DNA of 64,000 nucleotides from Coriobacteriales bacterium (GTDB taxonomy: Bacteria; Actinomycetota; Coriobacteriia; Coriobacteriales; UBA8131). Position numbers and translations under genes: made by a program. Location: NCBI GenBank assembly GCA_031277035.1, contig JAISLY010000048.1, positions 1,629 to 65,628 of the forward strand, given 5' to 3'. The notes beneath the pieces were generated by a model, which was not told where the DNA came from, searched no databases, and saw nothing but the letters and a program-made list of their open reading frames with translations. This document shows positions 42,119-50,900 of the stretch, in pieces. Within the stretch, counting starts at the first letter, position 1; every line of letters begins with the position of its first letter.

Positions 42119-42290
42119 TCGTGTTGCCAAAGGCCTCACTGCCAAAGATGTTCGTGCCGGTGTTCGTTCCGGAGGTGTTACTTACGTGCCGGTGTTCGTC
42201 TCCTCTGCCTCTCTTTCGTATTATACTGTTGTCGGTACCACGTTTGCAGCGCTCACCCATTGACCGACCGTGCTCAGGGTATGACGACGG

Positions 42291-42441
42291 GCGGCTCGCA
42301 GGCGGGCGGAACACAGGCGGCGGAACGCAGGCGCGGCAGGCGGCTTGCAGGCGCGGCAACAAGTGCCAGGCGGCGGGCGGAACACAGGCGGCGGAACGCA
42401 GGCGCGGCAGGCGGCTCGCAGGCGGACAACAAGTGCCAGGC
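42291..42441. repeat. 71-bp tandem repeat (~2.1 copies), G-rich, intergenic
   Basis: Units start at 42302 and 42373 and are near-identical (GCGGGCGGAACACAGGCGGCGGAACGCAGGCGCGGCAGGCGGCT...AACAAGTGCCAGGC). A partial copy lies at 42291. Confidence 0.85.
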
Positions 42442-42498
42442 ATGGCAGACAGCAGGCAGGCGGCACCGGACAACAGACGACAGCGAAAGGCGGTAGAG

Positions 42499-42969
42499 AT
42501 GAACCTTGACCTCAGCATCCAGCACATCGACGTCCATACGAACGATTTGGAAGAATCCCTGCGCTTTTATACGGAGGTGCTCGGCTTTCGCTATCTCTTT
42601 GCCCCCGAAGCCGACGCCGAAGCCCCCCTTGAGCTGATCTGGCTGCGCAATGACAACGGTGTGGTCATCGAGTTGACCCGCGAGCGACGCGGCGACTACG
42701 ATGCCGAGGCGGTAAACCGGGCAAGCGCGACGCATGTGGCCCTGCGCACGCCGGACATAGACGCTGCGATGGAGTGGCTGCGTCAAAACGATGTGGAAAT
42801 TGAGTTCGGTCCGGTGCAGATGGCCTTTGCCTTTGACCGTGAGCTTGCCGATGAAACGGAGCGCTCCGTCTTTGGCTACACGGACGGCAAAAGCGCACAG
42901 ATGCGCCTCGCCTTTTTCCGCGGGCCTTCCGGCGAGCGCTTCGAGCTGCTCCAGGATGATCTGCGATGA
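42499..42969 (+). CDS. VOC (glyoxalase/bleomycin-resistance/dioxygenase) family protein
   Basis: ATG 42499 (MNLDLSIQHIDVHTNDLEESLRFYTEVLGF), 156 aa. The upstream part of ORF 42121-42969 merely translates the tandem repeat. Confidence 0.75.
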   Translation: MNLDLSIQHIDVHTNDLEESLRFYTEVLGFRYLFAPEADAEAPLELIWLRNDNGVVIELTRERRGDYDAEAVNRASATHVALRTPDIDAAMEWLRQNDVEIEFGPVQMAFAFDRELADETERSVFGYTDGKSAQMRLAFFRGPSGERFELLQDDLR

Positions 42970-44009
42970 AGGCCGTCTATGTGACGCGCACCTTTGACGG
43001 AGCGAGTGGCACGCCGGGTAAGGTCGAGGTTCTCGAAGTCGCCAAGCCTGCGGTCAGGGACGATGACGACGTTCTTGTCCACATCGCCTACTCGGCTCTG
43101 TGCGGCTCAGACGCGCACTATATCAAGGACAATCTCTTTCCCTTTGAGCCGCCCTTCGCGGTCGGACACGAGTTTTCCGGCGTTATTGAGGAAGCGGGGG
43201 CACACGCTGTGGCCAGGGGGTTTGCGCCCGGTGATGAGGTGACGGGCAACTTCGTGCTTGAGTGTGGCTTTTGCGATATGTGCCGTACGGAGAAGCGTCA
43301 GTTCTGCGAGCATGCGACGGCCAACGGCTCGGCCCAGGCGGAATACATCGTGCTGAAGGCCGCTCAACTCTATCATCTGCCCCCGGGAACCAGCCTGCTC
43401 GAGGGGGCGCTCATCGAACCTTTCACAATTGCCTGCGGCGTTATCGACAAAGCGCGGCTGCGCCTGGGGCACAGTGTGCTCATCCTTGGGGCTGGCAGCA
43501 TCGGGCAGATGCTCGTTCAGCTCGCACGACTGAACGGCGCCTCCCTTGTCGCCGCTTCAGCCCGCACCCCCTCAAAGCGCGAGCTCGCCCTGAACCTTGG
43601 CGCGAACGCCGTCATCGACCCTTTGAACGAGGACATCTTTGCCCGCTCGCACGAACTCGCAGGCCCGGGTTTTGATGTCGTGCTTGAGGCCTCGGGTTCC
43701 CTTGAGTGCGCGCAACAGGCCCTTGACCTCGTGGCGCCGGGCGGCACGGTTATCCTCATGTCCTACTATCCGCCCGACCAGCCGATAGCCATCGACCTCT
43801 TTAAGCAGGTGGTCGTGCGCGAAATCACACTCAGCGGCCTGCAGCTCTCACAGAATAACTGGCCACGGGCGCTGCGAATGTTTTCGCGCGTGGATGTGCG
43901 CCCGCTCATCTCAAAGGTCTATCCTCTGCAGGAGGCGCCACAGGCCTACGCCGACCTGATTGCCGGACGCTCCCTGAAACTCGTTTTGGACTGTCGGGAT
44001 GTCTCGTGA
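42966..44009 (+). CDS. zinc-dependent medium-chain alcohol/polyol dehydrogenase
   Basis: 347 aa, overlapping the VOC gene through ATGA. The catalytic Zn motif is CGSDAH...GHEFSG. The structural Zn site is CGFCDMCRTEKRQFC. The Rossmann motif is GAGSIG. Confidence 0.85.
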   Translation: MKAVYVTRTFDGASGTPGKVEVLEVAKPAVRDDDDVLVHIAYSALCGSDAHYIKDNLFPFEPPFAVGHEFSGVIEEAGAHAVARGFAPGDEVTGNFVLECGFCDMCRTEKRQFCEHATANGSAQAEYIVLKAAQLYHLPPGTSLLEGALIEPFTIACGVIDKARLRLGHSVLILGAGSIGQMLVQLARLNGASLVAASARTPSKRELALNLGANAVIDPLNEDIFARSHELAGPGFDVVLEASGSLECAQQALDLVAPGGTVILMSYYPPDQPIAIDLFKQVVVREITLSGLQLSQNNWPRALRMFSRVDVRPLISKVYPLQEAPQAYADLIAGRSLKLVLDCRDVS

Positions 44010-44980
44010 GTGAATCCACTGAACCCACCGGCCTGGTGTTTAACGTACAGAACTACTCGGTACACGACGGGCCGGGCATCCGCGTCGAGTTCTTCATGAA
44101 GGGCTGCCCTCTGAGCTGCGAATGGTGCAGCAACCCCGAGGGCATCTCGCCTGCGCCCGAGCCGGCCGCCTATCCCGACAAGTGCATGGGTATGGCGGAA
44201 TGCGGCAACTGTCTGAAGGTCTGCCCGAGTGGCGCTCTGCTCTTTACGGCCGACGGCTTTATGGGCGGCATCGATCGCACAGCCTGTATCGCCTGTCTGG
44301 CCTGCACAAAGGCCTGTCTGACCGGCGCTCTGACCGCCTGGGGCAAACGCTATACGGTTGCAGAGGCGATGGACATCATCCGGCGCGACCGGGTTTTCTT
44401 TGAGAAGACCGGCGGGGGCGTGACCATCTCCGGAGGCGAGGCCCTGCTCCAGCCCGAATTTGTCCGTGCCGTCTTTGAGCAGTGTCGGGCGGAGGGCATC
44501 AATACCTGCCTGGAATCGGCCCTGTTCATCAAACAGAGCCTCCTTGACGATGTGCTGCCGCTCACAGATCTCTTCATCGCGGACATCAAGACGATGGATG
44601 CCGAGAAGCACCGTGTGCGCTGCGGCGTAGACAACGCGCCCATTCTCGCGAATCTTCGCTATCTGGTTGCCCACGACGCGCGGCTCGTCATTCGAACGCC
44701 GGTGCTCAAGGGCTTTAACGCCACGGATGCAGAGATTGCCGCAATCGGGCGCTTTATTCTCGAGGACCTGGACAACCGGGTGCTCCAATACCAGCTTCTC
44801 CCCTACCGACAGCTCGGCACGGAGAAGTACGCCTCGCTTGACCAGGACTATCCAATGGCCAGTTTTGAGGGATATGATCGGGCAGAATGGGAGCCGGACA
44901 TTCGCCACTTTCTTCAGATGCTGCAGGATATGGGCATCAACGCCGTCTCCGGCAACAACAAGAAGCTGGATCTGGGATAG
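44006..44980 (+). CDS. glycyl-radical enzyme activating protein (radical SAM, with two ferredoxin-like clusters)
   Basis: The GTG start overlaps the ADH stop (GTGA). It has VHDGPGIRVEFF, the radical-SAM motif CPLSCEWC, and then the Cys clusters CGNCLKVCP and CIACLACTKAC. Confidence 0.9.
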   Translation: MSESTEPTGLVFNVQNYSVHDGPGIRVEFFMKGCPLSCEWCSNPEGISPAPEPAAYPDKCMGMAECGNCLKVCPSGALLFTADGFMGGIDRTACIACLACTKACLTGALTAWGKRYTVAEAMDIIRRDRVFFEKTGGGVTISGGEALLQPEFVRAVFEQCRAEGINTCLESALFIKQSLLDDVLPLTDLFIADIKTMDAEKHRVRCGVDNAPILANLRYLVAHDARLVIRTPVLKGFNATDAEIAAIGRFILEDLDNRVLQYQLLPYRQLGTEKYASLDQDYPMASFEGYDRAEWEPDIRHFLQMLQDMGINAVSGNNKKLDLG

Positions 44981-45130
44981 GAGTCCGCGCGCAAAGGGGC
45001 GCGGGACGGTCAACATGCCAGCTGTGCGATGGCACACAGGGGCAGGAATTGCCTGCTTGTACCTCTTGCCCTCTACACGTTTTTGGCGGAGCATTCGATG
45101 TCCCCGGGCCGGACGGAGCGGCACGGACAG

Positions 45131-45162
45131 ACAGGAAGACAGGAAGACAGGAAGACAGGGAG
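45131..45162. repeat. 8-bp tandem repeat (ACAGGAAG x3 + ACAGGGAG) abutting the nitroreductase RBS
   Basis: Read directly from the sequence. The last unit supplies the GGGAG located 6 nt before ATG 45169. Confidence 0.8.
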
Positions 45163-45168
45163 CAGTGG

Positions 45169-45834
45169 ATGGACTTATCAGAAGCAATCAGGGCACGGCA
45201 CTCGGTGCGCCAGTACGAGGGCATCCCGCTTGAGCCCGATGCTGCACGGCAGCTCGGTGCGTACGTTGAGGAATGCAACCAGCTAAGCGGTCTGCACATG
45301 CAGCTGGTGCTGGATGACAGCAGGGGCATAAGCGGACTCAGGCGCCTGCTTCTGAAAAACGCAGAAAACTACCTGGCCATCGTGGGCGCACATGAGAGCG
45401 GCCTTGAGTACAGCGGAGGCTACTGGGGCGAGAAGGTCGTGCTCAGAGCCACGCAACTCAACATCGCCTCCTGCTGGTTTGCCATGGGCGCCAAGAAGGA
45501 CAAGGTACAGATAGCGCCCGGCGAGAAGCTGCTCATCGTTGTGGCGCTGGGTAACGCCGCCCAACCGGGCAAGCCGCACACATCAAGGCAGATGACCGAG
45601 CTTTATGCCAATGAAAGTGGCGGCGAGCTTCCTTTGTGGTTCCTGGCGGGCATGGATGCCGCAATTCTGGCACCAACAGCCAACAACCAGCAGAAGTTCC
45701 GCTTTACCCTGCTGCCGGACGGCATCGTCAAGGCTGAGTCGCTGGGCGGCGCCTGGGCGGGCATCGACCTGGGAATAGCCTGCTGTCACTTTGAGATTGG
45801 CGCGGGCACGGAGAACTTCAGCTGGGCGAATTGA
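45169..45834 (+). CDS. nitroreductase-family flavoprotein
   Basis: ATG 45169 (MDLSEAIRARHSVRQY...), 221 aa. The upstream part of ORF 44887-45834 overlaps the activase gene and intergenic DNA. Confidence 0.75.
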   Translation: MDLSEAIRARHSVRQYEGIPLEPDAARQLGAYVEECNQLSGLHMQLVLDDSRGISGLRRLLLKNAENYLAIVGAHESGLEYSGGYWGEKVVLRATQLNIASCWFAMGAKKDKVQIAPGEKLLIVVALGNAAQPGKPHTSRQMTELYANESGGELPLWFLAGMDAAILAPTANNQQKFRFTLLPDGIVKAESLGGAWAGIDLGIACCHFEIGAGTENFSWAN

Positions 45835-46655: not shown

Positions 46656-49277
46656 TCAGTCGATGGAAAGCTCCGTGCGGTTGATGAGGTCGTCCTGCAA
46701 AACCGGCGACATCTCCGTGAAGTAGGTGCTGTAGCCCGCAACACGCACGAGCAGGTCGCGGTAGTCCTGCGGCTTTTTCTGAGCTTCGAGCATCGTCTCT
46801 TTGGTGATGACATTGAACTGACTCTGCTTGCCGCCCATGCAGAAGTAGCCGTCTATCAGGTTCATCATGTTGTCGCGACCGGTCTCACCAGAAACCGTGT
46901 TGGGCGAAAACTTCCAGTTGAGGATAACGCCGTTGGTTATCTCAGCCTGGTCGATCTTTGCAATGGAGCGGGCGATGGCCGTCGGACCCGAGACATCGTG
47001 CGATCCGCCGTAGGTGTGCACCGCGCCCAGGCAGTCAGAGATGGGCTCCCAGTCCACACGCCCGTCGGGAGAAGCCTTCATCTCGCCGCCGAGCGCGACG
47101 TTGATGGAGATTGAGTAGACGCCAGGGATGAAAAAACCACCGCGTGCGGTCTTATGCTTCTTCATCTCGGTGGAGAACAGATGCGCGATGTAGACGGCGT
47201 ATTTGTCCGCATAATCGTCATCGTTGCCGTAGTGGTGCACCCTGCTGCTGTTCACGTAGGCGTAGACCTGGCGATAGCCAGTCCAGTTGTTCTTGCAGGC
47301 CTTGATAAGGTCCTCGCCTGAAATCAGCTTCTCATCAAAGACGAGCTGCTCGACCGTCGAGAGAATATCCGCGCAGGTTCCCAGTCCGCAGCCCTGCGGG
47401 CCGGAGCGATTGTAGCGTGCGCCGCCCACAACGATATCCCTGCCCGTCTCCACACAATCGTGATAGAGCAGGCTCAGGTAGGGCAGGTACTTATTCTGCT
47501 GGTTGGCGAGGTCTATCTTGTTTGTCATGTTGCAGAGCACCTCGACCCAGTATTCAAACTGCGTGCGCACCGCGTCCATGACCTCATCCATCGACTGCAT
47601 ATCCTTGAGGTAGCCGGTCTGGGGGCCCACCTGGGTATCGTCGTCAAAGGTCTTGCCGTCGTTTAAGGCGAGTTCGACGACATAGGCCATGTTGAGATAC
47701 CCGCTGTCGTGCCAACCGTGCATGTAGCCGGGAATGGTGGGCTCAACGCAGCCGACGGGCATGTACTGACGCGCAAGCTCAAGGGGGATGCCGTCATCTA
47801 CCAGGCCAGGAATCATCACATCGTCATTGAATATCTTGGGCTCACCGCAGCCGATACGCGCGACGTTAAAGACCTTGATCTTAAACTCCTCGGGCGAACC
47901 GGAATGAAGACGGACGCCAAACCAGGGCACCGGCATGCGCGTGTGCGCGTATGCGTCAAGCGCGATGTAGCTCAGGTCATTGGTGACATCGTTTCCCTCG
48001 GCGTCAACGCCGCCGACATCCAGGGAGATGCCGCCGTAGAAGGTGCCCGACGCAAAGATGATGCCAAAGCGGTTGCGCAGCTTGTTGAGCTCGCGCATCT
48101 TGACATAGAAGTTCTCGGTCAGCTCCTGACAGAACTCACGGCTTAAAACAGAGGTGTCATAGAAGGGTGCCAGAAGGACATCAAAACGACCGTAGCCCAC
48201 CGAGTGGCCGTTTGCCTCAATGCAGGTGATGCAGTAGGCAAAATGCAGCAGCTGGACGGCCTCCCAGAAATCCCGCGGGGGCTGGGTTGCGACGTGATAG
48301 CAGTTCGCCGCCATACGCTCAAGCTCCCGTTTGCGCTGAGGGTCGCCTTCCTTCTCGGCTGCCTGGGCGCACAAATCGCCATAGCGGTTCGTCCAGCGCT
48401 CGATGGCATCAAGGACGATAAGCGCACTGTCGTAGAAGTTTGCCTTACGCGCAAAGTCGGGGTCATCGGCCTCAAGCGCGGCCTGGTAGCCGAGCACTTC
48501 CTGGCGGATGCCCTCCCAGCCAAGCGTGAGCACCTTGGCGTGATCGGCGTTGCCGTGCCCGATGCCCTGCGTCATATAGTGGTCAAGGTTCATCAGATGC
48601 TTGCCAAACTGACTCCCCTTGAGATCTTCCTCATCAAAGGATGCCATGGCGATGTCGACCAGCGTGTTTCCCTGCCGCCAATACTCCGCGTAGGCCTTGA
48701 TGGCGTCCTGGTTTTCCGGCGGGACAAAGAGCTTGTCGTTGGGGCGTTGGTCCATCGGCCAGTTCTCAAACTCGTCGATAATCCAGTCCATGCCGTATTC
48801 GGGATAGATGCCGCATTCGTTTGCCGGCGCGGCAATGTCGCCAAGCAGCAATTCGTCGTCGTAGAGAAAGACCTCGCAGTTATCGAGCACATAGGCCAAG
48901 ACGTGGGCATTCTTCAGACCCAGCGGCTCGCCATCATAAATCTGGTAGGCCTCGGTGACGAGACGGCCGCGCACCGGATCGACGCTTGGCGTCTTGGTAC
49001 GTATCCATTCGAGCAACCGGTTGATACGTGGGAAGGGAGACTTGTCGCCGACGCGGCCAGAGACGCCCACACCCCACTCCTTGTCATAGGGCTCGATGGC
49101 CAGAGGGACGATTCGGGGGTCGCCCTCGCGCATCGGCGCCTCGCGCTCCTCCCTGGGCTTGTACCCTGTGGTCGCGCTGGCGCTCGTGTTCGCTGCGGTT
49201 GTGGTTGTGGTTGCGGTTGCGGTTGCGGTTGCGGTTGTGCGTGCGGCGTCCTTTGCTGTCGTACTCGTCGTGCTCAT
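46656..49277 (-). CDS. glycyl-radical enzyme (PFL-fold), 1,2-eliminase/dehydratase-like, substrate unknown
   Basis: ATG 49277 lies 6 nt after GGAGGT. The C-terminal glycyl-radical motif is LVRVAGYSTYF and the thiyl loop is VGCVEP. YGNDDDYAD and GIGHGNADH are also present. The N-terminus is a Thr/Ala-rich extension. Confidence 0.9.
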   Translation of the reverse strand: MSTTSTTAKDAARTTATATATATTTTTAANTSASATTGYKPREEREAPMREGDPRIVPLAIEPYDKEWGVGVSGRVGDKSPFPRINRLLEWIRTKTPSVDPVRGRLVTEAYQIYDGEPLGLKNAHVLAYVLDNCEVFLYDDELLLGDIAAPANECGIYPEYGMDWIIDEFENWPMDQRPNDKLFVPPENQDAIKAYAEYWRQGNTLVDIAMASFDEEDLKGSQFGKHLMNLDHYMTQGIGHGNADHAKVLTLGWEGIRQEVLGYQAALEADDPDFARKANFYDSALIVLDAIERWTNRYGDLCAQAAEKEGDPQRKRELERMAANCYHVATQPPRDFWEAVQLLHFAYCITCIEANGHSVGYGRFDVLLAPFYDTSVLSREFCQELTENFYVKMRELNKLRNRFGIIFASGTFYGGISLDVGGVDAEGNDVTNDLSYIALDAYAHTRMPVPWFGVRLHSGSPEEFKIKVFNVARIGCGEPKIFNDDVMIPGLVDDGIPLELARQYMPVGCVEPTIPGYMHGWHDSGYLNMAYVVELALNDGKTFDDDTQVGPQTGYLKDMQSMDEVMDAVRTQFEYWVEVLCNMTNKIDLANQQNKYLPYLSLLYHDCVETGRDIVVGGARYNRSGPQGCGLGTCADILSTVEQLVFDEKLISGEDLIKACKNNWTGYRQVYAYVNSSRVHHYGNDDDYADKYAVYIAHLFSTEMKKHKTARGGFFIPGVYSISINVALGGEMKASPDGRVDWEPISDCLGAVHTYGGSHDVSGPTAIARSIAKIDQAEITNGVILNWKFSPNTVSGETGRDNMMNLIDGYFCMGGKQSQFNVITKETMLEAQKKPQDYRDLLVRVAGYSTYFTEMSPVLQDDLINRTELSID

Positions 49278-49342
49278 CACACTACCTCCAGTTACTCTGT
49301 TGTCCCTGATCTACGGTATCTGCTGTCATGTCTGCTCTGGTT

Positions 49343-49600
49343 CTATCCTATCTTCAGTTGATATTCCTCCACGGCGCTGGAGAGGTCAATCTCCTCGGGA
49401 GGCACCACTTGCTTGACCTCCTTGATGAGGTCGCAGGCCACACAGCCCCTCGGGTTGAACAGCCCCTTAAAGTGGCAGTCGCGTAAATCGCGGCGCTCGT
49501 AGAGGCCATCGTCGCGCTCAACATAGGTGACGCTGAAGGATTCCTCCTTGCTGTTGACCGGACACCAGCCCTCGAAGAACTTCAGGACTTCCTTTGCCAT
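49343..49600 (-). CDS. 85-aa four-Cys protein of unknown function (possible GRE small subunit)
   Basis: ATG 49600 follows GGCAGGAGGTG, a strong SD. Cys residues are C13, C52 and C63-x2-C66, with His53 adjacent. The stop is 66 nt upstream of the GRE start on the same strand. Confidence 0.65.
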   Translation of the reverse strand: MAKEVLKFFEGWCPVNSKEESFSVTYVERDDGLYERRDLRDCHFKGLFNPRGCVACDLIKEVKQVVPPEEIDLSSAVEEYQLKIG

Positions 49601-49634
49601 TGCAACACCTCCTGCCTCTCAGAAATCAGCTTCC

Positions 49635-49663: not shown

Positions 49664-49707
49664 GCGACCTTTCAACTTTCTCAGCGGCTTTCTCGTGCTC
49701 TTGCCCC

Positions 49708-49838
49708 ATTCTCGCCCCAGGCCGGGCCCGTTCTCGCCCCGGGCCGCCCGCCGTACTTGCCGCAGACTCGCCCCGGGCCGCCTCACTGCCGGCTCGCTCT
49801 CGCCCCGGGCCACCCCACTGCCGGCCCGTTCTCGCCCC
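49708..49838. repeat. five copies of GGGGCGAGA(A) motif (minus-strand sense) in 22-34-nt register, intra-operon intergenic
   Basis: On the plus strand, (T)TCTCGCCCC occurs at 49708, 49731, 49766, 49798 and 49829. Two adjacent 32-nt units are nearly identical. A sixth copy lies at 50938-50947 in the 5' UTR of the URO-D gene. Confidence 0.85.
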
Positions 49839-49847
49839 GTCCACCCT

Positions 49848-50900
49848 CTAATGCGTCTTATAGAAGGTCTTGCAGTACTTTGACGCCTCATCGTTGACGA
49901 TGTAGTTCTTCTTCCTGTTCTCCTCATCGCCCACCGCCACCAGAAAACCGCCGAGGAAGCAGTAGCCGCCACCCGGCGCGAGGCGGTCGATGCTGTCGCG
50001 CACCGACTGGCGAATCTCCTCCTCAGTGACGCCATCGGGATGCTCTGGGGACTGGAGCGGGTCGACCAGGCGCTCGCGCCCATCCCAGCCGCCCATCAGC
50101 ACGAGGCTGTTGCCATACTTCTTCTTCACCGCGTCGAGGTCGTTGGAGGTCTGGGCGGGGTCCCAGGCAGTGATGCCGATGCCGGTGAGCAGGTCGAAGA
50201 AGGCCTCAGACTTGCCACAGTTGTGCATCGTCATCGGCAGGCCGCGCTCACGCCCGTAGCGGGTGAACTTGGCGTGGTGCGGCAAGACGAACTCACGATA
50301 CATGTCCACGGAGATAAACGGCGCGTTCCAGCTGGCCGTGTCGTCCATCAGGCAAAGCGTATCCGGCTGGTACAGGTCGATGGTCTTCTCCACAACACCG
50401 ATATAGAAGTCCGAGAGGTAGTGGAGCAGTTCGTGAACCAGCTCAGGCTCCTCATACATGGCAATCATCGCATCCTCAAAGCCCATGAAGGAGACGAGGT
50501 GCTGAAAATAGCCAAAGTGCAGGGCAAAGGCCACAGCTGTCTGTTTGCGGTCGATGGGGATCATGTCAAAGTGTTTCTTGACCGTCTGCTCCCAGTCGAC
50601 ATCGGAGAAGTCCGGAGCCTTGATGATCTCCCGCCAACGTGGCAGGTCGTCAAGCGGCAGGATGAAGCTGCTGTTATCGGGAATCAGGGCCATCTCTGCG
50701 GAATCGGTGGCAACGTAGTTGACGCCCCACAGGTCAGGCCCACCATTATTGAGGCGATGCTCGCCAAGGATGGGTGGCTCGAAAATCTGGCTCGGCAGAT
50801 CCCATTCCCAGCCGGGGAATGCTCCCATCGTATACATGGGCACCCACTCCGGCACCTCGCCGCGCAGGCACATCAGGTAGTTCTCCTTAGGGGTAAGCAT
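49848..50900 (-). CDS. URO-D/MtaA-CmuA-family protein, paralog 2
   Basis: 350 aa. ATG 50900 follows GAGGAAGGAAG. MLTPKENYL, HNCG (H-x-C-G) and a later GGGYCF are present. This is the first gene of the GRE operon. Confidence 0.8.
   Translation of the reverse strand: MLTPKENYLMCLRGEVPEWVPMYTMGAFPGWEWDLPSQIFEPPILGEHRLNNGGPDLWGVNYVATDSAEMALIPDNSSFILPLDDLPRWREIIKAPDFSDVDWEQTVKKHFDMIPIDRKQTAVAFALHFGYFQHLVSFMGFEDAMIAMYEEPELVHELLHYLSDFYIGVVEKTIDLYQPDTLCLMDDTASWNAPFISVDMYREFVLPHHAKFTRYGRERGLPMTMHNCGKSEAFFDLLTGIGITAWDPAQTSNDLDAVKKKYGNSLVLMGGWDGRERLVDPLQSPEHPDGVTEEEIRQSVRDSIDRLAPGGGYCFLGGFLVAVGDEENRKKNYIVNDEASKYCKTFYKTH

Follow-up and report, generated by a model that had tools for sequence, protein, structure and literature searches.

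The window analysed here, a stretch of 64,000 nucleotides (nt) from a Coriobacteriales bacterium (contig JAISLY010000048.1), carries a gene for a four-cysteine protein of 85 amino acids upstream of a gene for a glycyl radical enzyme (GRE), and comparative analysis revealed that this small gene is strictly linked to one GRE clade. In our estimation there is about an even chance that the small protein is a clade-specific Cys4 accessory protein, which would bind metal as well as the GRE and have a structural or regulatory role; most likely it would be a stoichiometric small subunit of the enzyme. This reading is favoured because the gene is strictly linked to the GRE and not to the GRE-activating radical-SAM enzyme (AE) or the alcohol dehydrogenase (ADH) of the same pathway, because it is translationally coupled to the GRE, because both families have a matching narrow distribution, and because the cysteines are invariant. 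The features of the window that bear directly on the pair are as follows.

49343..49600, minus strand: gene of the small protein, ATG start, 85 codons (from the list of open reading frames (ORFs) and the translation)
49608..49613, minus strand: Shine-Dalgarno sequence AGGAGG, 7 nt before the ATG of the small gene at 49600
46656..49280, minus strand: GRE, an 874-amino-acid ORF with matches to PF02901 (PFL-like) and PF01228 (Gly_radical)
49285..49289, minus strand: ribosome-binding site GGAGG of the GRE; 4 nt separate it from GTG 49280 and 7 nt from ATG 49277

The small ORF, read on the minus strand from 49600 to 49343, translates as MAKEVLKFFEGWCPVNSKEESFSVTYVERDDGLYERRDLRDCHFKGLFNPRGCVACDLIKEVKQVVPPEEIDLSSAVEEYQLKIG and is present in the public record as MDR2197468.1 (locus tag LBO07_05845), a "hypothetical protein" of a Coriobacteriales metagenome-assembled genome (MAG). 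Its perfect AGGAGG is matched, at a distance of 4-10 nt, at only 11 start sites of the window (ORFs of at least 60 amino acids), which bears out the opinion of the first-pass annotation that this is one of the best Shine-Dalgarno sequences present. The stop codon TAG occupies positions 49345-49343, leaving a gap of 62 nt to GTG 49280 or of 65 nt to ATG 49277 of the GRE, the latter being the probable start, as it is better spaced from GGAGG; the 66 nt given earlier, together with the placement of both genes on the same strand, was thus essentially right. The protein is acidic, with a net charge of about -5, and contains four cysteines in total, C13, C42, C53 and C56, the last two arranged as C53-x-x-C56. 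Here the first-pass annotation was correct for C13 only, since the other three had been numbered C52, C63 and C66, i.e. shifted by +10. The histidine which it had included in the putative metal site is actually H43 and does not belong there, as this position varies (H/R/Q/N/D) among the homologs.

The linkage statistics rest on 11 distinct loci, all of which were annotated uniformly by tblastn and hidden Markov model (HMM) searches (loci and protein clusters are designated below by L and P numbers, respectively). Scans of a genome contig collection and of a metagenome contig collection returned only three loci each; the small-protein family is rare. Co-occurrence with the GRE clade had been set as a test of the first-pass annotation beforehand, and its outcome was favourable: the small gene was found inside the GRE operon in 11 of the 11 loci, and three loci of the sister clade of HpfG-like GREs were without it. 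The former include four loci that were reached from the GRE side (L016-L018 and L021), all four carrying the small gene. As for the sister clade, an HMM search of six-frame ORFs gave no match to the small gene in L019 and L020, no analogous small ORF precedes the GRE of L019, and no small gene was called beside the GREs of L026. Across the loci, the GRE is the sole constant neighbour of the small gene.

Two operon architectures can be distinguished. Loci of type A (the window, L006-L008, L009/L016, L010, L017, L018 and L027), which come from Coriobacteriales or Actinomycetota MAGs where the source is named (the window, L016-L018 and L027), have the small gene directly upstream of the GRE gene, and in L007/L008, L009 and L027 the stop codon of the former overlaps the start codon of the latter in the sequence ATGA. 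The ADH and AE genes of type A loci are located downstream, lie in a convergent operon or are unmatched in the retrieved sequence; no match to AE or to Zn-type ADH (Zn-ADH) was found in L009, L010 and L017. Loci of type B (L001-L005 and L021-L025, with L023 and L024 originating from human gut metagenomes) are arranged in the order MFS – small gene – Zn-ADH – GRE – AE – aldehyde dehydrogenase (ALDH) – transporter.

Further genes accompany the type B operons (L001-L005 and L021-L024; for example, L001 973-4730). A divergent upstream unit coding for TPR, DUF4125, DUF4037 and family-III CoA-transferase proteins is always present, and genes for ALDH, a 438-amino-acid transporter (with a CitMHS match in L005) and a PucR-like regulator are found downstream.

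Among 5.8 billion protein clusters searched, 32 proved to be homologs of the small protein (E values from 2e-15 to 6e-43, 58-95% identity over the aligned part); those with a named source derive from MAGs of Coriobacteriales or Actinomycetota, and all are annotated as hypothetical. The exhaustive profile HMMER search of 1.84 billion representative proteins recovered only seven representatives, hence the family is very narrow, and in this it matches the small size of the partner GRE clade, which comprises 17 clusters with 68-87% identity to the window enzyme and is followed by a drop to ≤53% identity, where hundreds of HpfG-like GREs are found. Between the loci, synonymous differences of the small gene are saturated (pS 0.59-0.95) and the proportion of nonsynonymous differences is far lower (pN 0.09-0.32); the gene is under strong purifying selection. 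Together with the 32 homolog clusters, this leaves the ORF of 85 codons and four cysteines standing as a real gene, as originally called. The identity of the small proteins (55-85%) tracks that of the GREs (68-86%) across the loci, with a mirror-tree correlation of r = 0.79 (36 pairs), as would likewise be the case for any two genes with a common genome history.

All four cysteines are invariant in the 33 aligned members, including two remote relatives, P0034 and P0037, which share 31-34% identity. The spacing in the family, C-x28-C-x10-C-x2(5)-C, is unlike that of HiPIP; the last pair is CxxC in most members and Cx5C in P0030, P0031 and L021. Further invariant columns include G11, FSVTY (22-26), ERRD (35-38), D41 and GLFNP (46-50). 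The C-terminal acidic tail with the motif V-E-E-[FY]-x-[LM], in which E79 is invariant, was detected in GRE-linked members only. The remote relatives P0034 (E = 2e-10) and P0037 (E = 2.5e-4), which are among the seven representatives recovered by HMMER, are 64-68 amino acids long and keep the four cysteines, and the acidic tail is missing from them.

The loci of the remote relatives (L011 24-230, L012 116-322, L013 8001-8195, L014 and L015) are phage-like regions. In one such context the relative adjoins a tape-measure gene, and in another it is situated between the genes for an Ltp-like lipoprotein and an NYN protein, with Bro-N, P63C and YoeB genes nearby. No GRE was seen near the relatives in these phage contexts. 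A tblastn comparison of a phage relative with 50,697 phage genomes produced no match, and a scan of a viral contig collection yielded none either.

Two AlphaFold2 runs (pLDDT 73 and 76, pTM 0.59 and 0.64, respectively) predicted a core formed by a three-stranded beta-sheet, with antiparallel strands at residues 3-13, 18-28 and 34-40. In the model, C13 ends strand 1, C42 falls in a less confident loop region after strand 3, and C53xxC56 marks the onset of short helices; for the C-terminal tail, confidence is low. One CxxC at the N-terminus of a helix combined with two distant cysteines is typical of a structural metal site. The four cysteines presumably converge in space.

In agreement with the earlier suggestion that the protein may define a new family, no significant match was found for it in Pfam, NCBIfam or PHROGs, and the family is without annotation. 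The profile search of all PDB chain sequences, a set which includes 2YAJ, the alpha chains of BSS (4PKC/9PZJ) and those of MASS (9O8U), gave, up to E = 10, one spurious match only (E = 0.81), and Foldseek comparison of both AlphaFold2 models with the PDB gave no match below E = 0.8. The best Foldseek match in BFVD was an uncharacterised siphovirus protein of borderline similarity (E = 0.058, TM 0.53), which agrees with the existence of phage-borne remote homologs. When aligned by hhalign to the rubredoxin of C. pasteurianum and to the HiPIP of C. vinosum, the protein reached probabilities of 0.5% and 0.9%, respectively, with only the CxxC aligned. The profile, Foldseek and hhalign results therefore all uphold the statement of the first-pass annotation that the protein does not resemble the known small subunits of GREs. 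Neither the small protein nor its partner GRE clade was found described in literature searches.

The HiPIP-like subunits of HPAD, BSS and MASS are similar in size to the 85-amino-acid protein. According to a review of June 2026 (PMC13450708, section 4.2), these three are the only GREs in which small subunits have been observed: gamma, carrying two [4Fe-4S] clusters, in HPAD, beta and gamma in BSS, and beta, gamma and delta in MASS. Of these subunits, MASS delta is of the rubredoxin type and binds mononuclear Fe, and the others are HiPIP-like (PMC13450708). Their roles, including solubility, gating and the installation or persistence of the radical, are only partly understood, and that of the iron cofactors is termed "enigmatic" (PMC13450708).

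Like BSS beta/gamma, HPAD gamma (HpdC/CsdC) and MASS beta/gamma, the small protein has a conserved set of cysteines, its gene belongs to the operon of the catalytic GRE and is limited to a particular GRE clade, and its role is plausibly structural or regulatory rather than catalytic. Unlike them, however, it shows neither sequence similarity to the HiPIP-like subunits nor a HiPIP-like fold, but a predicted three-stranded beta-sheet core, and its partner is a C-x-E 1,2-eliminase, akin to the glycerol and propanediol dehydratases, instead of an X-succinate synthase or an arylacetate decarboxylase. With MASS delta it has in common a four-cysteine site in a very small GRE-linked protein; since MASS delta contacts the glycyl radical domain (PMC13450708), a comparable regulatory role is suggested for the small protein. 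Rubredoxins, on the other hand, have two CxxC(G) knuckles, whereas the small protein has one CxxC and two isolated cysteines. A tie to a GRE is also a property of the "spare-part" proteins GrcA/YfiD, but the small protein possesses no Gly_radical domain or RVxG motif, hence its mechanism must be wholly different.

The partner GRE displays the Cys loop GCVEP, of the C-x-E type, and the glycyl motif RVAGYS. The C-x-E motif defines the 1,2-eliminases among the GREs (PMC13450708, section 5.6), and the partner GRE combines it with the PFL-like barrel and the glycyl radical domain expected of that class. The best NCBIfam match is HpfG (NF048009), whose score of 920.6 bits is below the equivalog cutoff of 1000, and the closest solved structures are glycerol dehydratase (GD) 1R8W and propanediol dehydratase (PD) 5I2A. 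The enzyme resembles HpfG, a (2S)-3-sulfopropanediol (DHPS) dehydratase, and the B12-independent glycerol and propanediol dehydratases in the C-x-E Cys loop, in the GxGH motif and in the presence of ADH and ALDH genes, for an aldehyde product, in the operon. No small partner has been described for HpfG or for those dehydratases. The partner GRE differs from the HpfG-like clade after the Cys loop, where GYMHGWHD of the partner clade stands against GKTYGWHD. In addition, the GREs linked to the small protein have eight invariant cysteines (residues 135, 156, 304, 350, 353, 384, 478 and 662 of the 874-amino-acid ORF) that the sister clade lacks or has only rarely; these include the C-x2-C motif YC[ILV][TI]CIE and a Cys replacing Thr in RIG(T/C)GEPK. 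Such residue differences suggest, at the level of sequence, that the partner GRE acts on a substrate other than DHPS.

The N-termini of the GREs are heterogeneous. In the window, the 5' end of the GRE gene includes a (TGCGGT) x 7.3 repeat (plus strand, 49194-49237), which encodes a T/A-rich N-terminus of low complexity. The GREs of type A loci L006, L009, L010 and L017 have variable, seemingly disordered N-terminal extensions, and those of type B begin with MATVLEYAKRD. The GRE of L006 (JGI contig SAHD_10000525) contains an in-frame stop at ~9370 (DKE*GVG), being either an assembly error or a pseudogene; the nearly identical L007/L008 are intact.

In 19 of the 22 sampled GREs of the HpfG-like sister clade, a 13-residue insertion with the motif C-x2-C-x3-C-x5-C, exemplified by GRCIDCSSQCPRYAKCAGAG, was found some 35 residues C-terminal to the catalytic GCVEP loop. 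The enzymes bearing it are among P0056-P0156 (e.g. L020 2079-4619) and are ~50% identical to the window GRE, in which the equivalent gap falls between amino acids ~546 and 547 of the 874-amino-acid ORF (at about 47640 of the window). The insertion is absent from the clade linked to the small protein, from P0055, P0067 and P0115, and from the solved structures 1R8W (GD), 5I2A (PD) and 9RCO. Judging by its cysteine pattern, it may be an undescribed in-cis Cys4 metal site of HpfG-like GREs, and perhaps hints that an auxiliary metal module is needed recurrently.

Two specific relations between the small protein and its GRE were considered in addition. A strict swap from cis to trans, in which the small protein replaces the insertion, is weakened by P0055 (L019), P0067 and P0115 (L026), since all three are devoid of the insertion, and L019 and L026 also have no small gene. 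Electrostatic docking of the acidic small protein on basic residues specific to the linked GRE clade was rejected, because the GREs of the linked clade are more acidic overall than those of the sister clade. As a separate observation, L026 (2089-7245) encodes two GRE paralogs in tandem (861 and 831 amino acids), followed by one activase, ALDH and PTA.

The remaining features of the window that surround the pair are the following.

44006..44980, plus strand: AE with a ferredoxin-like insert (Pfam/NCBIfam), in an operon separate from the GRE
42966..44009, plus strand: Zn-ADH (Pfam), a homolog of which lies beside the GRE in most related loci
49699..49847, no strand assigned: ~32-nt GC-rich tandem repeat in 4-5 copies with the core CTCGCCCCGGGCC; the repeat takes up the 247-nt spacer that separates the small gene from the URO-D-like gene upstream of it

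The Zn-ADH presumably reduces the aldehyde product of the GRE. Together with the AE it is part of a plus-strand array (42121-45834) that encodes a glyoxalase-family protein, Zn-ADH, AE and a TM1586-type nitroreductase and runs convergently towards the genes of the LysE exporter, the GRE and the small protein; the glyoxalase-ADH-AE layout recurs in L027. Just upstream of the small gene, at 49848-50900 of the minus strand, a homolog of URO-D and MtaA/CmuA-like methyltransferases is encoded (PF01208, E = 1.6e-17; the NCBIfam cutoffs are missed by far), and in none of the other loci is such a gene conserved beside the small gene and the GRE. The core of the spacer repeat, CTCGCCCCGGGCC, occurs nowhere else in the window, and none of 100 shuffled sequences reached four matches to it; the repeat may be an operator or an element of the promoter region. 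GC-rich tandem repeats, sharing the core GCCGGCA with that of the window, precede the small gene of L009 as well. Between lineages, the upstream regions of the small gene are not conserved, while the protein is. The Rfam search of the spacer gave no match and no riboswitch, and a scan for promoter and terminator consensus sequences performed no better than on shuffled sequence.

How the small protein might act can be outlined as follows. It would fold as a small beta-sheet domain, which C13, C42 and the C53/C56 pair would staple by binding a metal, be it Zn, mononuclear Fe or a small Fe-S cluster. Confined to the GRE-linked members, the acidic tail VEE[FY]xL is the likely docking element. By analogy with BSS, HPAD and MASS, the protein may either stabilise or solubilise the catalytic subunit, or else modulate the glycyl radical domain, affecting the installation or the lifetime of the radical; it would take no part in substrate chemistry. 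A bolder proposal, which we put forward only tentatively, is that with it an accessory subunit would be recognised for the first time in a 1,2-eliminase GRE: an orphan Cys4 fold, present otherwise only in a few phage proteins, which would serve in trans as a metal module and control how stable the catalytic subunit or how accessible the glycyl radical domain is, analogously to MASS delta or BSS beta. Such an in-trans module might parallel the in-cis CxxCx3Cx5C insertion of most HpfG-like sister GREs, which would have been lost in the partner clade.

Several observations, however, count against an accessory protein dedicated to the GRE. The confidence of the AlphaFold2 models is only moderate (pLDDT 73-76), and the convergence of the cysteines is inferred. 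The alternation of CxxC and Cx5C in the last cysteine pair is unusual for a rigid site of the knuckle type. The Cys4 domain itself is not specific to GREs, given its phage relatives in GRE-free surroundings. In type B operons the ADH gene separates the small gene from that of the GRE, and in L005 the stop codon of the small gene overlaps the ADH start by 4 nt; adjacency to the GRE is thus not universal. Lastly, the review of 2026 covers six C-O-cleaving eliminases, none of them described with a partner subunit (PMC13450708).

The type B arrangement, with the small gene directly upstream of Zn-ADH and the overlap in L005, is what one would expect if the protein were a partner of ADH or of another pathway enzyme, or a transient chaperone of assembly or maturation instead of a stable subunit. 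This seems unlikely to us: Zn-ADH is unmatched in L009, L010 and L017 and belongs to a different operon in the window as well as in L027; the GRE is always present. The chaperone variant would suit the solubility function proposed for gamma subunits (PMC13450708), although sequence analysis does not separate a chaperone from a subunit. The same distribution bears on the idea of a dedicated low-potential electron carrier, similar to ferredoxin or rubredoxin, which would feed the radical-SAM cluster of AE or quench the glycyl radical protectively. Four invariant cysteines, small size and acidity (net charge about -5) would all be appropriate for such a protein, many ferredoxins and rubredoxins being small and acidic. 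Moreover, GRE activases need a reductant, and reduction of the radical has been proposed for HPAD gamma (PMC13450708). The small gene, however, follows the GRE and not the activase, AE being unmatched in L009, L010 and L017 and placed in another operon in the window and L027. The protein also has neither the ferredoxin motif CxxCxxCxxxCP nor a pair of rubredoxin knuckles, hhalign gives it less than 1% against rubredoxin and HiPIP, and Foldseek returned no fold of a redox protein. We therefore regard an electron carrier as improbable, to the same degree as a partner of ADH or a chaperone.

A somewhat smaller probability still is given to a regulator acting outside the enzyme, i.e. a metal or redox sensor or a zinc finger through which the GRE operon would be controlled at the level of transcription or translation. 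The small gene is the first of its transcription unit and is preceded by the repeat-bearing 247-nt spacer. A Cys4 site could respond to O2 or to the redox state, and the remote relatives reside, beside Bro-N, Ltp and toxin-antitoxin genes, in accessory regions of phages, which commonly encode small regulators. Nevertheless, the protein is acidic (net charge -5) and has no helix-turn-helix (HTH) or other nucleic-acid-binding signature in Pfam, and the ATGA coupling implies that it is made in roughly the same molar amount as the GRE, a very abundant enzyme, which is atypical of regulators. In addition, the upstream regions diverge between lineages that retain the protein, and the loci already hold PucR-like (HTH_30) regulators. 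The phage-borne P0034 and P0037 and the siphoviral best match in BFVD could also be taken to mean that the gene is a phage-derived hitch-hiker with no role in the GRE pathway, but this is highly implausible: the linkage has been kept across two operon architectures and down to 55% identity, purifying selection is strong, translational coupling to the GRE occurs in three loci, and the GRE-linked copies have no phage genes around them. On balance, the proposal of a candidate new GRE accessory family, made in the first-pass annotation, is supported by comparative genomics, apart from the numbering of three cysteines and the inclusion of a histidine in the site.

If the small protein is indeed an accessory subunit of its GRE, several consequences follow. 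Expression of enzymes of this clade, which belong to gut and termite-gut Coriobacteriales, should probably include the small gene, because, without their partners, HPAD alpha has hardly any activity and the alpha subunits of BSS and MASS are insoluble. The small protein and its GRE would also offer a simpler, two-gene system for dissecting what such subunits do in solubility, radical installation, radical lifetime and redox protection. The small protein, as a fourth Cys4 partner without structural relation to the others, would bring small subunits to the eliminase/dehydratase class, the largest and fastest-growing class of GREs. It would mean that metal-bearing accessory modules recur and have evolved independently across GRE classes, beyond the hydrocarbon- and arylacetate-activating enzymes.

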